From Gammaproteobacteria bacterium (GTDB lineage: Bacteria > Pseudomonadota > Gammaproteobacteria > UBA12402): a DNA stretch of 64,000 nt. Positions 1-6,000 of this stretch are shown here, piece by piece. A program made the position numbers. Location: positions 16,437-80,436 of the forward strand of contig JAFGHQ010000042.1 in NCBI GenBank assembly GCA_016930035.1, in the 5' to 3' direction. Position 1 is the stretch's first letter. Each line of letters starts with the position of its first letter.

Positions 1-3000
1 ATATGTACCTACCTCAGCATGCTGAGCAATTAAAACAACTGCTCAAACAGCTGAGTGACCTAAAAAAACAGATCAATTTACTGGAAGAAACCTGGCTAAT
101 GTAACCTTTGGTGTCTGACACCAAAAGTTGCATCGGCTTTATAACTTATTGATTATATTGGTATTATAATAAAAAAATTGTGTAGACAAGTTCAAGGTTT
201 GGGAGCAGAATCATTTTACTTGCTTAGGCAAGCAAAAAATTAAGGACCCAGCTCTTTCTTGAGTTGGTTTTTATCACGATATTTATTGAGGAACTTTATT
301 ATGAAAAGATTAGGAAAGTTTTTAGTTTTTTGTGCGGTGCTTGCATTTATTATCTCAGCATGTGCCACAAATAAAACTGATACGGTCACCCAAACAACAA
401 AACCACCGGTAACTAAAGTAATGAAAGCCAAAACGGCTAAAGTAGCTAAAGCCAAAGTGGTTAAGGAAAGAATCAATATCAATACTGCTAATACAAAGAC
501 ATTGGATAAAGTAAAAGGGATCACCATGAAACAAGCAAAAGCAATTGTTGCTTATCGCACCAAGCATGGAAATTTCAAAAGTGTTGATGATTTGATTAAA
601 GTAAAAGGCATTACAAAAAAACAGTTGAAGAAAATTTCAAAGTCTTTAACTGTTTAAATTGATCCAAAATTTTAAACTAAGCCAACCGCGCCTCGGATAT
701 GTATTATCCTGGGCGTGGTTTATTACTGGAGATGAAACGCACGCAATATGCAAAATATTGTTGTTGTAGATAACGCAAAAAAAGCAAAATTTGACGTCGT
801 CAACGCTGAAATCGTATCTGCAAAAAACTATCTATTAGATAGTAATTACTCAAAAATCAATAACATTAGAATTTATAATCTTTGTAAATCATGTAAATAT
901 CAAAGTACCGGGTATTATGTTTCGCTACTTGCCCAAGCACGGGGTCACAAAGTTTTACCCAACATTACCACCCTTCAAGATTTAAATTCTCGGCCCATCA
1001 TTAAACTTTGCAACGAAAACCTTGAAGCTGACATTCAAAGAAGTTTATCGAAAATCAAATCCGAAGAATTTATATTGAGCGTCTACTTTGGACACAACAT
1101 TGCCAAACAACACGAAACATTAAGTAAAAAAATATTTGATTTATTCCGCGTCCCTCTTTTAAGAATTAAATTTGTTTATGTGGATCAAAAATGGGTGCTA
1201 CGCAACATTACCATGATTTCGCTTAACGAAGTTCCAGAACCACATCTCCCCTATTTAAATGAATTTGCTACACAATATTTTTCTAAAAAACGGGTATGCG
1301 AACCTAAAAAACATCACACTATTTACGATCTAGCTATTCTTATCAAACCTAACGATGAGGAACCCCCTTCTGATAAAAAAGCCATCCAAAATTTTATAAC
1401 CGCGGGAGAATCCTTAGGTTTTTGTGTGGATTTAATTACCAAAGATGATTTTAATCGCTTACCCGAATACGATGCACTGTTTATTCGAGAAACTACTGCG
1501 GTCAACCATCATACCTATCGTTTTGCCAGACGTGCTTTAGCTGAAGGACTTGTTGTCATCGACGATCCCGAATCTATTATCAAATGTACTAACAAAGTAT
1601 ATCTAGCCGAATTATTAGCAAGAACGCGGATTTCCACACCTAAAACACTGGTGGTATGTGAGGATAATCAATCCCTCATAGAACCCCTTCTAGGATTTCC
1701 TTGTGTCTTAAAAAAACCTGATGATTCATGCTCTAGAGGCGTTATTAAAGTAGAAAACAAAGAAATGTTAAAAGATGTACTGAACCAATATTTTAAAACT
1801 TCCGAGCTTATTATTGCACAAGAGTTTCTTCCTACCGAGTTCGATTGGCGAATCGGTATTTTAAATAAGCAACCTCTCTTCGCTATAAAATATTTTATGG
1901 CTAAAAATCACTGGCAAATCTATGACTGGGAAAGTAAAGAAAGATACGGAGATCACGAATCTGTTGATATACCTAACGTTCCTGATGTCATAATTAAAAC
2001 AGCATTGAAAGCTGCTAATCTCATCGGAAATGGATTTTATGGGGTAGATATCAAACAAATCAAAGACCGTGCTTATGTTATTGAGATCAATGACAACCCC
2101 AGTATTGATGCTGGTGTAGAAGATGCACGCTTAAAAAATGATCTTTATTTAACCATTATGAAAACATTCCTTACTCGTCTTCAAGAAAAAAAACAAACGC
2201 ATCATGAATCTTAATAGCCCTTTATCTTTATTCTCTGCTTTTGGCATCGAAGCCGAGTACATGATCGTGCATCAAGATACTTTAAATGTGCTCCCTATTG
2301 CAGATCGTTTATTTCATGATATCTCAGAGCGTTATGCCAATGAAATTGAAAACGGCGATATTTCTTATTCTAATGAGCTGGCCCTTCATGTCATTGAGCT
2401 TAAAACGAGCGGTCCAAGTAAAAATTTAGACGTATTGCCTTATTTATTTCATCAACATATCTGCCATATCAACCGTTTGCTCGCCAAATATCAGGCTAAA
2501 CTCTTGCCCACTGGCGCGCATCCTTGGATGAATCCAAATAAAGAATTTAAACTATGGCCTCACGGTTATAATGAAATTTATGAATCTTACCATCAAATTT
2601 TTGACTGCCGCGGGCACGGTTGGTCTAATCTACAAAGTATTCATTTAAATTTACCTTTTGGCAATGAAGAAGAATTCGTTAAATTACATGCCGCCATTCG
2701 ACCTATTTTACCCATTATGCCTGCGCTAAGCGCTAGTTCGCCAATCATTGATTCTAAGCCAACTGGTTATTTAGACACTCGACTCTTTTTTTATGGACAA
2801 AACCAAAAAAAAATTCCGATTATTGCGGGAGATATTATTCCTGAAATCATTTTAAGCAAAAAAGAATACCACGAAAAAATTCTCCAAAAAATTTATCAAG
2901 CGATAAAACCTTATGATCCTAAAAATATTTTGCAGCACGAATGGTTAAATTCCAGAGGAGCTATCGCAAGATTTGATCGGGATGCCATTGAGGTGCGACT

Positions 3001-6000
3001 ATTGGACACACAAGAATGCCCCTTGGCAGATGTAGCTATAGTTGCTCTGATTATTGTTACACTTCAAAATTTATTGAACGAAAACTGGGGATCTTATGAA
3101 AAACTGCTCCATTACCCTACAGAAAATCTTAAAGAAATTTATTTAGGTAGTATAAAAGAAGGATTGAGCTATAAAATCACGGATCAAACTTATTTAAAAT
3201 TATTCGGCTGCAACAAAAGTTTTTGTACTGCAAAAGAATTATGGATGCATATTTTAAATCATTTAAACCGCCCCAAATTTGCTTTCGATCAAAAATTTTT
3301 AACGGTAATTAACACTATTTTATCTCAAGGAAATTTATCAGAACGCATTTTGAAAGCACTAAAGGGTAACTATTCCAAAGCAAACTTGCTTAACACCTAT
3401 CAAAAATTAGCCGATTGTTTAAAATACAATAAAATTTTTTAGTAAAGGGAAATAATATGGAAAAGCGATTGATAAAGAAAACTACCTTGCCCTGGGAAAT
3501 GAGGAGGAGCACCCAGAGCAAGATAGCAAGGACGTTGCCTCTAACTCTATGAACTTTATGAGAGGCATAATAAAGGATACAGATGACAGTAGCATGACGA
3601 AAAAATGACAAAATCGTCATATAACGATTTTTTTTGATTTTTTTTAACTGCTTTGAATATTTTTAGGAAAAATCATACTCACACGAATGTGCCCTTTATG
3701 TTTATTAGAAAATTCTAATCGCCCATCATGGGCTTTCATGATGGATTGCACAATCGAAAGACCCAAACCCACTCCCCCTGTTTTTGTAGAACGGTGGGCA
3801 TCTATGCGATAAAAACGTTCACTGAGCTTCTGAATGTGTTCATCCGATATGTCCGTACTTTCGTTAATCACATGAATTTTGACGAATTCATTATCGCTAT
3901 TAATAATCACCCTAATATCCGTATTAGGATTCCCATACTTAATCGCATTGGTCAAAATATTTGAAAAAGCCTGACGTAATAATGTTGAATCCGCAAAAAG
4001 TTTCCCAGAACCATGATAAACAATTTTCATGTTTTTTTCTTCAGCGAAAGCTTGCAGAAATTCAATCACTTTATTAAGCTCTTCCGACAAATCGAGGGAA
4101 GCTCGGCTCAGTGCTAAACTGTCACTGTCTGCTCTTGCCAAAAACAATAATTTCTCAATAATTTTTGAGAGTCGTTGATATTCCTCAAGGCTCGAGCTTA
4201 GCAATAGCTCAATTTTCTTTTGATCATCTGTGTGCTTAAGTATGACTTCCGTTTCTAGCATTAAATTATTAATGGGTGTTCTCAATTCATGGGCAATATT
4301 AGATGAAAAGGTTGTTAACTGATCAAAATTCTTTTCAATTTTTTCGAGCAGTTTATTGAAAGACTCTGCTAAAGGCTTTAATTCAGATGGCAATCGTTCG
4401 ACATCAATTCGTTCATTGTGTTTTTTGGGATCAATTTTTAATAAAAAAGCAGTGAAATTTTTTAATGGCGACAATCCGAACCGAATAAAAAACCAACTTG
4501 AGAATGAAGCTATTAATATCCCGATAACCGTAATTAATAATAAATCACCCAAAAAGACATTTAAAATCTCTTGATTTTGCGTAACGTCATAGGCTAATTT
4601 TATGATAAATGTTTGTCCAGCTGGGGTAGTGACACTACCTGTCATAACTTGGTAAATTCTCCCCTGTCGATATAATTTAACCATATCAGAATAAGGCGAT
4701 TGGGATTGAGCGGAAATCTCTGGCCAAATACTACCTCTAAACTTTTCAATCATCGTCGGCGTAATTCTTGCAAGCTTTTTGCCCAACGTAATCTGTGCTA
4801 AAAATTGGTAATTATTCCCTTGCGGCCGCCAGACAATTTCTTGATTAAGCGCATCCCAATTACCAACGTGCTCCTTAAGTAAAGCACCAATAACGTCTAT
4901 TTCACTTTTCAGAAACTTCGATGCAGCCTCATTAAATTTTTTGTTCAATAAGTAGTACGAAGCCGTGGATATGACCATAAGGATTACAAACATGCCACTT
5001 AAAACCAACGCACAAAGTCTAGCTGAAATAGATAACTGTTTAAAAAAATGCGAAAATCGTTTCAACATGTCACCTCTTTAACATCAGTTATGGATAACAA
5101 TTGCATAACTGACGTTATTTAAAATTTTATTGCCATTTTTAATTCTTAATTTTTAACTATCATGCTTGTTGGGTTGCGCTGTACGGGTCGCAAGACCATG
5201 ACCCCTACGATTAATTTTGTCGCGCAAGCGACTCATTCATTTAAAATTCAAAATTTAAAATTTTATGAAGATTCTTAATTCTTCTACTCCCCTTCTTCAA
5301 TAAGATACCCCGAGCCCCGAACCGTATGAATCAATTTCCGATCACCCGAATCACCAATTTTTGCTCTCAACCGCTTGATTGCCACATCAACAATATTACT
5401 ATCACTGTCAAAATTCATATCCCAAACTTGTTCAGCTATGTAAGTGCGAGAAAGAGTTTCACCCTGATGTCGCACTAATAACAAAAGCAAATTAAACTCC
5501 TTTGAAGACAAATCAACACGTTTTCCATGACGTTTTATTTTACGTTTGACTAAATCAATTTCAAGATCTGAAACTTTAATACGATCGACTTGCTGCTGTT
5601 TACCACGACGAAGCAAAGCTTGTATACGGGCCAATAATTCAGAAAAAACAAAAGGTTTGACCAAATAATCATCTGCACCAAAGTTTAAGCCTTTTACACG
5701 ATCATCCACGGCATCTCGAGCGGTCAATAATAAAATCGGGGTTGTTTTATCTTCTATTCGTATCTTTTTTAAAACTGTCCAGCCATCAATCATGGGCAAC
5801 ATGATATCTAAAATAATCAAATCATATGGGACTTCTTTTGCCATAAATAGACCATCTCGACCATTATCAGCAAGATCTACCAAAAAACCATGCTCAGACA
5901 AACCCATTTTAATGTATTGGCTTGCTTTTTCCTCGTCTTCAACTAATAAAATATGCATAATTAATCACTATATAAAATATTGAATATTGTATAGGAGGAT

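Follow-up and report, generated by a model that had tools for sequence, protein, structure and literature searches.

The window, that is, the whole 64-kb stretch of DNA analysed, carries two overlapping genes on the forward strand. ORF A (748..2214, 488 aa) encodes an RLAN domain followed by a RimK-type ATP-grasp ligase, and ORF B (2204..3442, 412 aa) encodes a carboxylate-amine ligase of the GCS2 family. The junction reads ...CAT CAT GAA TCT TAA, with the ATG of B at 2204 within the last codons of A; the 11-nt overlap (2204..2214, forward strand), which joins the stop region of A to the start of B, points to translational coupling. In Pfam, ORF A matched RLAN (PF14401, residues 25-167, E 9.2e-46, 155.7 bits, cutoff 25) and the RimK ATP-grasp family (PF08443, residues 282-454, E 8.6e-14, 52 bits, cutoff 21), and ORF B matched GCS2 (PF04107, residues 39-294, E 1.1e-30, 107.5 bits). 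These matches lie far above chance expectation. The ORF coordinates, the junction and the Pfam matches thus bear out the overlapping ATP-grasp and GCS2 ligase genes, with their 11-nt overlap, that had been proposed in the first-pass annotation of this DNA.

Both ORFs align end to end with their homologues, and neither is truncated. The pair is flanked by a ComEA-like gene and a histidine kinase gene. A promoter and terminator scan of positions 500..3800 gave counts no higher than the shuffled expectation, with no sensible site 5' of A or 3' of B. PADLOC returned zero matches for A, B and the C39-like and FGase-like proteins of related loci (see below), so a defence role was rejected.

ORF A had previously been described as carrying an extra N-terminal domain of about 270 aa with no recognisable motif. 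Our results corrected both points. The region contains the curated RLAN domain PF14401, and the part that is truly extra measures about 185 aa, since residues ~192-280 form an ordinary pre-ATP-grasp N-domain; the alignment with RimK begins at ORF A residue 236, equivalent to RimK residue 53. The RLAN domain (residues ~1-179, 748..1284) is connected by a flexible linker (residues ~180-191, 1285..1320), which has a pLDDT below 50 in the full-length model and low sequence conservation, to the catalytic ATP-grasp module (residues ~192-488, 1321..2211), all on the forward strand.

By prediction, RLAN is a truncated ATP-grasp-like module that is catalytically dead, a degenerate version of the first two-thirds of the fold without the lid and the Mg/ATP strands. 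This kinship rests on the predicted structure and on a weak HHalign signal, since the RLAN sequence gave just chance-level matches in the PDB (E 0.3-0.5) and the RLAN profile, searched against 1.84 billion representatives, did not reach ordinary ATP-grasp proteins. The profile collected 918 clusters at 50% identity. The probable role of the domain is that of a built-in pseudo-subunit or of a docking surface for a ligand or partner.

In the catalytic module the ATP/Mg and substrate residues are intact, and the invariant columns include K283, K322, Q358, R368, D434, E446 and N448. R368 aligns with RimK R189 and R247 with RimK R64, and both are invariant. In RimK, R189 forms the acyl-carboxylate site and R64 the incoming-Glu site, while R96, R98 and R102 make up an arginine belt that guides the poly-Glu or acidic S6 tail (PMC10375531). 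The belt positions align with K279, T281 and Y285 in ORF A. Moreover, ORF A did not reach the RimK families of NCBIfam, scoring 34.4 bits with the PRK10446 equivalog (cutoff 331) and 63.3 with the TIGR00768 subfamily (cutoff 143.4). The possibility that ORF A is simply a divergent RimK that retains S6 modification is therefore unsupported. Among the window ORFs of at least 150 aa, a length above that of S6, the scan revealed no rpsF. Its top NCBIfam similarities are to alpha-L-glutamate ligases, among them the small-molecule enzyme MptN, which is the best match (4e-19) although below its equivalog cutoff; CofF also matches.

The invariant columns of ORF B are G14, E16, E18, N57, E58, H62, E65, H147, N149, R193, R251, E263, D268 and Q270. 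By sequence its sole solved relative is the plant glutamate-cysteine ligase (E 3e-5 with the single sequence, 5e-3 with the profile). All its NCBIfam matches are far under cutoff, including those to the YbdK-type models TIGR02050 (47.7, cutoff 176.4), PRK13515 (53.6, cutoff 371) and PRK13516 (25.5, cutoff 425), and it reaches just the superfamily-level Pfam GCS2 model. ORF B is very remote from the characterised glutamate-cysteine ligases, and its amino-acid specificity cannot be read from the sequence. It belongs to a GCS2 subfamily dedicated to RLAN-ATP-grasp partners. By their conserved residues (K322, D434, E446 and N448 in A; the invariant Glu/His/Arg set in B), both enzymes are intact.

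The sequence search for homologues gave at least 8000 candidates for each of A and B. Identity across phyla is 55-63%. Among 75 loci with an RLAN-ATP-grasp gene, 36 have a GCS2 gene immediately 3' of it; they come from Gammaproteobacteria, Ignavibacteria/Bacteroidota, Spirochaetota/Leptospira, Planctomycetota, Alphaproteobacteria, Desulfobacterota and Bdellovibrionota-like MAGs. In the reverse test, all four independently chosen genes of the GCS2 subfamily (4/4) adjoined an RLAN-ATP-grasp gene. Where the A/B pair recurs, its junction is usually a 4-nt overlap (ATGA). In the first-pass annotation the pair had been read as a two-enzyme amidoligase system with coupled functions, a reading to be abandoned if the two genes were not neighbours in other genomes; the conservation seen from either side, and across phyla, supports it.

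Four genes make up the usual operon: those for a C39-like peptidase, for A and B, and for an amidohydrolase of the FGase type. The conserved Q/C/H/D residues of the C39-like partner are intact, and the FGase gene occurs only at loci with GCS2. Spirochaete loci add a gene for a Peptidase_C26 protein (gamma-glutamyl hydrolase/PuuD family, E 8e-62). In the 64-kb window, tblastn with eight representatives each revealed no C39-like, FGase-like, GNAT or cluster-6 genes. The sister locus of the window is L001. Since loci with A and B and without the hydrolases recur (the window, L001, L022, L023 and L036), A and B make up a sufficient core, to which the C39-like and FGase genes are accessory. The window thus carries the minimal two-gene form of the RLAN-ATP-grasp/GCS2 system, the synthetic core alone.

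A second partner of the RLAN-ATP-grasp protein is a GNAT, which adjoins the A homologue in 8 loci and is fused N-terminally to it in 17 proteins of about 650 aa; the fused GNAT is nearest to the N-alpha-acetyltransferase RimI. GCS2 and GNAT, whether adjacent or fused, are near-mutually-exclusive. This exclusivity and the RimI-like character of the fused GNAT fit alternative N-caps, gamma-glutamyl or acetyl. Note that the Bacteroidales loci that looked like solo ATP-grasp genes were rejected as partnerless, because their proteins are GNAT fusions. In about 12 loci, from spirochaetes and Desulfobotulus, no GCS2 or GNAT gene lies within 10 kb, so A may act alone or with unlinked partners. The arginine-biosynthesis genes beside the operon in Pontibacter were judged coincidental, since they do not recur at other loci.

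No conserved small ORF that could encode a carrier or precursor was found beside the operons. Before filtering, every candidate small ORF was a shadow of A or B in another reading frame; the filter left just spirochaete ORFs, which are lineage-specific and lie about 3 kb from the operon. We therefore rejected a precursor or carrier encoded in cis.

Our preferred reading, to which we give roughly even odds (about 0.5), is that both A and B form amide bonds at the expense of ATP, as active ligases of one pathway that builds a small N-capped glutamate-containing peptide. B would activate a carboxylate, for which the gamma-carboxyl of Glu is the likeliest candidate, and couple it to the amine of an amino acid X. 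The alpha-carboxylate of this intermediate, held by R368, would next be phosphorylated by the ATP-grasp module of A. A would then attach an acidic residue bound at R247, L-Glu being the likeliest; alternatively, A could act before B. In most relatives, the cytoplasmic C39-like cysteine peptidase and the FGase-type amidohydrolase may degrade or trim the product. We infer the substrates, the order of the steps, the class of product and the roles of the hydrolases, and each chemical step rests on family membership. In support of a small peptide, the associated hydrolases (FGase, Peptidase_C26 and C39-like) all come from families whose substrates are small glutamyl amides or peptides, the best NCBIfam similarities of A are to alpha-L-glutamate ligases, A appears to keep the equivalents of RimK R189 and R64 and not the arginine belt, and the adjacency is translationally coupled and crosses phyla, with no carrier or precursor ORF conserved nearby.

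Other evidence counts against a small peptide. The solved structures nearest to ORF A are LysX/ArgX and RimK, whose substrates are protein C-termini; peptides or proteins are the substrates of C39-family peptidases and of RimI; and the 55-63% cross-phylum identity would also suit a conserved macromolecular target. A rival reading is the tagging of a protein or peptide C-terminus. Here A would add one or more glutamates to a specific protein such as ribosomal protein S6 or to an unlinked carrier, RLAN would dock the target, B or the GNAT would perform a second modification, and peptidases would take the tag off again, the part that RimB plays for RimK. We consider this unlikely, though it deserves to be taken seriously. 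The RimK-family and S6-ligase cutoffs are missed and the belt appears to be replaced, no gene for a carrier or target is conserved beside the operon, and the pair is not adjoined by a retropepsin RimB-like gene. In addition, the characterised GCS2-family, FGase and C26 enzymes work on small molecules.

Alternatively, a cofactor or some other metabolite that is not a peptide could receive a glutamyl tail, in which B would add gamma-linked Glu, A an alpha-linked cap, and gamma-glutamyl hydrolases would trim the tail. MptN glutamylates tetrahydromethanopterin and CofF glutamylates F420, so the matches of ORF A to both would agree with such a role, as would the Peptidase_C26 gene within the spirochaete operons and the ability of FGase-type amidohydrolases to cleave N-acyl-glutamates. 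However, the MptN and CofF scores are far under the equivalog cutoffs, the neighbourhoods share no conserved genes of cofactor biosynthesis, and the GNAT as alternative partner better suits the capping of an amino group. We regard tailing as quite improbable.

The pair also resembles glutathione synthesis by GshA and GshB, in that a GCS-type gamma-glutamyl ligase would be followed by an ATP-grasp enzyme adding the C-terminal residue, the same superfamilies in turn. A non-canonical thiol pathway, with B making gamma-Glu-Cys and A adding the third residue in place of GshA and GshB, is nevertheless very improbable. ORF B is far below the cutoffs of the GshA models (TIGR02048, 42.5 against 249; PRK13517.1-1, 50.9 against 332), as ORF A is for those of GshB (PRK05246, 19.8 against 272; PRK12458, 42.3 against 408). 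ORF A has an RLAN domain and is nearer to the alpha-L-glutamate ligases than to GshB, and the GNAT that can replace B in other lineages has no counterpart in thiol biosynthesis. Finally, chance adjacency or the decay of one gene, and hence no joint function, is scarcely credible: the missing C39 and FGase genes of most relatives could be read as operon decay, but both ORFs are full-length with every invariant residue present, the same two-gene form occurs in the sister locus and three other lineages, and the conservation from the A and B sides largely refutes it.

Comparison with other systems places the pair as a member of a widespread, computationally predicted and biochemically uncharacterised system. 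A neighbourhood system of RLAN-RimK-like ATP-grasp and GCS2 (COOH-NH2 ligase) genes was reportedly predicted by Iyer, Abhiman, Burroughs and Aravind in 2009, from which Pfam PF14401 presumably originates. A later article that cites Iyer et al. 2009 describes ATP-grasp ligases linked in operons to COOH-NH2 ligases or to GNATs, which would carry out successive peptide ligations (PMC4431377). The window shares with the predicted system the architecture of A and the GCS2 partner, and the relatives share the accessory peptidase, amidohydrolase and GNAT, but the window carries just the two ligases. The first-pass annotation had missed the RLAN family name, the usual four-gene operon with its two hydrolases and the prior prediction. 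The near-exclusivity of GCS2 and the RimI-like GNAT, and the C26 gamma-glutamyl hydrolase of the spirochaete loci, are new here. In the searchable literature we found no experimental study of the RLAN-ATP-grasp/GCS2 system.

RimK has about 300 aa and no RLAN, compared to the 488 aa of ORF A, and its partner is a retropepsin and not a GCS2 ligase. For LysX/ArgX, ORF A scores 63.6 bits with TIGR02144 (cutoff 275.6), and neither a LysW-like small acidic carrier nor lysine or arginine pathway genes are conserved beside the pair. Klebsiella CfmP is unrelated, being a TupA-like ATP-grasp protein. The preferred reading has its closest analogies, besides glutathione, in the syntheses of NAGGN, made by Ngg (an acetyltransferase-ligase fusion) and AsnO with an operonic peptidase (PMC8070244), and of NAAG, made by NAT8L and RIMKLA/B, RIMKLB being an NAAG/beta-citrylglutamate synthase (PMC7907349). 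Both combine an N-acetyl cap with an ATP-dependent peptide bond formed by a RimK-like or ligase module, which the GNAT-RLAN-ATP-grasp fusions mirror. The window, in contrast, has GCS2 and not GNAT, and has no AsnO-type amidotransferase; the Ngg-type NCBIfam model is absent among the matches of ORF A and of the GNAT fusion.

More tentatively, and with the odds rather against it, we propose that the pair and its GNAT-linked sister form make undescribed capped acidic peptides (gamma-Glu-X-Glu or acetyl-X-Glu) across at least 8 bacterial phyla. These might function in the cytoplasm as a solute, buffer or signal under regulation, with RLAN as a fossil ATP-grasp half turned into a regulatory or docking pseudo-enzyme. 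If true, a common class of bacterial metabolite, and a four-gene cassette for its synthesis and turnover, have escaped notice. The interchangeability of GCS2 and GNAT, and the resemblance of RLAN to a dead ATP-grasp copy, set concrete limits, open to testing, on what chemistry to expect and what the extra domain does, and the two-gene form of the window, as the minimal synthetic core, is the simplest construct to express. The RLAN-ATP-grasp/GCS2 system is widespread and unusually well conserved, and the identity of its product would give a function to thousands of genes now mislabelled as 'glutathione synthase', 'S6 modification protein' or 'glutamate--cysteine ligase'.

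Our analysis confirmed that the window carries two overlapping ligase genes, as the first-pass annotation had predicted from the sequence alone. The first of them, A (748..2214, + strand), is an ORF of 488 aa and the second, B (2204..3442, + strand), one of 412 aa; they overlap by 11 nt, with the ATG of B at 2204 within the junction CAT CAT GAA TCT TAA. Pfam searches placed an RLAN domain (PF14401, residues 25-167, E 9.2e-46) and a RimK-type ATP-grasp domain (PF08443, residues 282-454, E 8.6e-14) in A, and a GCS2 carboxylate-amine ligase domain (PF04107, residues 39-294, E 1.1e-30) in B. 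The earlier interpretation, a coupled two-enzyme amidoligase pair, was essentially right, and its description of the A N-terminus needs correction. This region had been considered unrecognisable, and is instead the curated Pfam domain RLAN. Moreover, its extra part had been put at ~270 aa and is only about 185 aa: since the alignment with RimK starts at A residue 236, which corresponds to RimK residue 53, residues ~192-280 belong to the N-domain that ordinarily precedes an ATP-grasp.

No NCBIfam model reaches its cutoff for A or B, and every match falls far under it. The best scores of A were 69 bits against MptN (cutoff 350) and 64 against LysX (cutoff 276), with 63 for rimK_fam (cutoff 143), 34 for the S6-glutamate ligase (cutoff 331) and 20 for GshB (cutoff 272), while B scored 54 bits against the carboxylate-amine ligase model (cutoff 371), 48 against the YbdK family (cutoff 176) and 42 against cyanobacterial GshA (cutoff 249). 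Thus, neither protein is the equivalog of a characterised enzyme. When solved structures were compared by sequence, none covered A residues 1-235, RimK and LysX were nearest to the ATP-grasp half, and the sole match of B was a weak one to plant glutamate-cysteine ligase. Both families are very large, with at least 8000 candidates in each search, and strongly conserved; the best matches listed (55-63% identity for A and 49-58% for B) come from Gammaproteobacteria, Bacteroidota, Ignavibacteriota, Omnitrophota, KSB1 and others. A 'RimK family protein' from a gammaproteobacterial MAG (P0001) is 100% identical to A. Note that a Logan contig (L079) encodes an identical 412-aa B, yet the best B homologue among the matches listed has 58% identity, a ceiling that is probably an effect of search indexing or of the number of candidates considered.

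AlphaFold2 gave a confident model of A residues 1-236 (pLDDT 86). Sequence searches alone found no link from RLAN to ATP-grasp proteins. HHalign aligned the RLAN profile collinearly with the ATP-grasp half of the same protein over 153 columns, RLAN 16-177 pairing with protein residues ~223-426, at P = 0.001 and a probability of only 22%; reversed-sequence controls gave P ~0.045 over 80-104 columns. The secondary-structure elements follow the same order in both halves, and a hairpin-plus-helix matches, "PLLRA.F..KKW.LQ..IP.NEIPE" being paired with "PLFACKYFMAK.HWQIY..PI..VP". RLAN ends ahead of the strands that bear D434, E446 and N448, and does not have the K322 lid. Since the order of elements matches and these strands and the lid are missing, we read RLAN, on the model and a weak sequence signal, as a putative truncated and catalytically dead duplicate of an ATP-grasp module. 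Its invariant polar cluster (N44, Y51, Q52, Y56, Y57, S59, R65, T75, Q77) is kept whatever the partner, which points to a ligand-binding site or an intra- or intersubunit interface rather than to a dock specific for GCS2.

The two genes are also neighbours in other genomes, a point on which the first-pass reading depended. GCS2 lies immediately 3' of the ATP-grasp gene in 36 of the 75 loci that a genome scan with A provided for neighbourhood analysis, usually with a 4-nt ATGA overlap. Conversely, when four GCS2-subfamily proteins were picked from the B search, each proved to be encoded directly downstream of an RLAN-ATP-grasp gene. Clustering of the ORFs around the ATP-grasp gene brought out a recurring block of four genes comprising, in order, a C39-like cysteine peptidase, the RLAN-ATP-grasp ligase, GCS2 and an FGase-family amidohydrolase, which pre-computed Pfam labels also place in Pontibacter ruber and two gammaproteobacterial MAGs. 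Catalytic residues are intact in both accessory hydrolases, and no signal peptides were detected in them. No C39, FGase or GNAT partner homologue is present anywhere in the 64-kb window. Since the two-gene form without hydrolases recurs in the closest relative (L001) and in several other lineages, A and B appear, from these comparisons, to be a self-sufficient core. The ORFs beside the operon include no small one conserved across taxa, and no component matched defence-system models.

Several loci deviate individually. In a KSB1 MAG (L081, 640-6233) a serine recombinase (Resolvase/Recombinase/Zn_ribbon_recom) has inserted into the RLAN-ATP-grasp gene and splits it; the ATP-grasp 3' fragment and GCS2 come after the insertion. 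In L006 (4019-9000) the pair is apparently duplicated in tandem, each GCS2 copy consisting of two ORFs (pattern 0+ 1+ 1+ 0+ 1+ 1+), which may reflect a true duplication that has acquired frameshifts, or else an artefact of the assembly. In P. ruber (L076, 520-8334) an arginine-biosynthesis cluster (argG, argC, argD, argF-like, argB, argE-like, argH) closely precedes the four-gene operon, with one opposite-strand gene between them, an arrangement not repeated in other loci. Two neighbours, each seen once, are reminiscent of protein modification: a radical-SAM methylthiotransferase of the MiaB/RimO type, encoded immediately upstream of the ATP-grasp gene (L035, 356-1624), and a MATCAP (PF08014) carboxypeptidase-family gene on the opposite strand, two genes upstream (L083, 198-1499).

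Other A homologues have a different partner. Seventeen loci, mostly from Bacteroidales and Flavobacteriia, encode GNAT-RLAN-ATP-grasp fusions of ~650 aa, which rules out reading them as partner-less, and a separate GNAT gene adjoins the ATP-grasp gene in 8 more. The fused GNAT is nearest to the N-alpha-acetyltransferase RimI, scoring under the RimI cutoff. GCS2 and GNAT practically exclude each other, the sole exception (L031) having an extra GNAT several genes upstream, and FGase is confined to loci with GCS2. One spirochaete clade has neither partner; here the A homologue occurs with a C39-like peptidase and a Peptidase_C26 of the gamma-glutamyl hydrolase/PuuD family (E 8e-62). In a neighbour-joining tree of the ATP-grasp protein, loci with different partner states intermingle and the branching does not follow taxonomy, a pattern indicative of horizontal transfer and of partner exchange inside a single tight family. 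Carboxylicivirga taeanensis encodes a second, divergent 459-aa ATP-grasp paralogue (L053, 11566-12945, - strand), convergent to the fusion gene.

To assign roles to A residues, those described for E. coli RimK were transferred through the alignment. In RimK, R189 forms the acyl-carboxylate site common to LysX and TTL, R64 the site for the incoming glutamate, and the belt R96/R98/R102 guides poly-glutamate (PMC10375531). R189 and R64 align with the invariant A R368 and R247, and the belt aligns with K279/T281/Y285. These residues would fit an enzyme ligating an acidic amino acid to a carboxylate without processive long acidic tailing. The main rival explanation is that A tags a protein C-terminus as RimK or LysX do, which would agree with its closest folds, the RimI-like GNAT and the C39 membership of the associated peptidase. 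However, A fails the RimK cutoffs and in the alignment lacks the belt arginines, the GCS2, FGase and C26 families have a small-molecule character, and no target gene is linked to the operon.

The data show domain content, residue conservation and gene linkage; the substrates, step order and product that follow are inferred. B would acylate the amino group of an amino acid to give a gamma-glutamyl-type (or other carboxylate-amine) amide and A would add a Glu-like residue to the alpha-carboxylate, although the order could be reversed, yielding a small capped acidic peptide. In the GNAT lineages an acetyl cap would take the place of the gamma-glutamyl one, and the FGase-like, C39-like and C26 hydrolases may degrade or trim the product. 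Glutathione is likewise made by GCS and ATP-grasp ligases, and the logic is analogous to that of NAAG, with an acetyltransferase and RIMKLA/B (PMC7907349), and of NAGGN, with the acetyltransferase-ligase Ngg and a peptidase (PMC8070244).

In the window, the pair is flanked upstream by a gene for a ComEA-like HHH protein (259..657) and downstream by a convergent OmpR-type two-component pair (3644..5068 and 5284..5958). The rlpA-mltB-rodA-mrdA genes are found at a distance of 8-13 kb; in two other loci (L077, L078) the operon is likewise near rlpA and dacA, a loose synteny. Among the window ORFs scanned (at least 150 aa, a limit above the length of S6) there was no rpsF, gshA/gshB, C39 or FGase. 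An AAA_18 kinase-like domain-GNAT fusion of 335 aa (9556..10563, - strand), ~6 kb from the pair, has no homology by tblastn to the GNAT partners. A two-module NRPS of 1678 aa (58687..63723, + strand; A-T-C-A-T, with two AMP-binding, two PP-binding and one Condensation domain) is another peptide-forming system, unrelated to A and B. A 1113-aa protein (34602..37943, - strand) carries a BEACH domain (PF02138, E 4e-69) and, after it, ankyrin repeats, a pairing of domains typical of eukaryotes that here occurs in a bacterial MAG; it may be an effector for host interaction in an intracellular, Legionellales-like bacterium. Large ORFs of up to 1153 aa without a Pfam match at E<=1e-5 (20461..22461, 26216..26842, 27206..28384 and 28431..31892, and also 32064..33587, 33904..34383 and 6129..8201) could be lineage-specific or effector-like proteins. 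Finally, an HTH_3 plus SocA/Panacea antitoxin-type protein (39464..40240, - strand) adjoins a protein of 465 aa (40483..41880, - strand) in which deoxynucleoside-kinase (dNK) matches occur in two stretches.

Successive ligations have been ascribed in general terms to ATP-grasp ligases linked with COOH-NH2/GNAT ligases (PMC4431377). The system of which the A/B pair is the minimal, two-gene form has a Pfam entry and was predicted earlier by comparative genomics; the pair is of a known kind, and its product is of a predicted type only. Our analysis adds the reading of RLAN as a putative pseudo-ATP-grasp domain, the alternation of GCS2 and GNAT, fusions included, and the link to a gamma-glutamyl hydrolase. 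The system would be of greater interest if its product proved to be a new, widespread class of metabolite.
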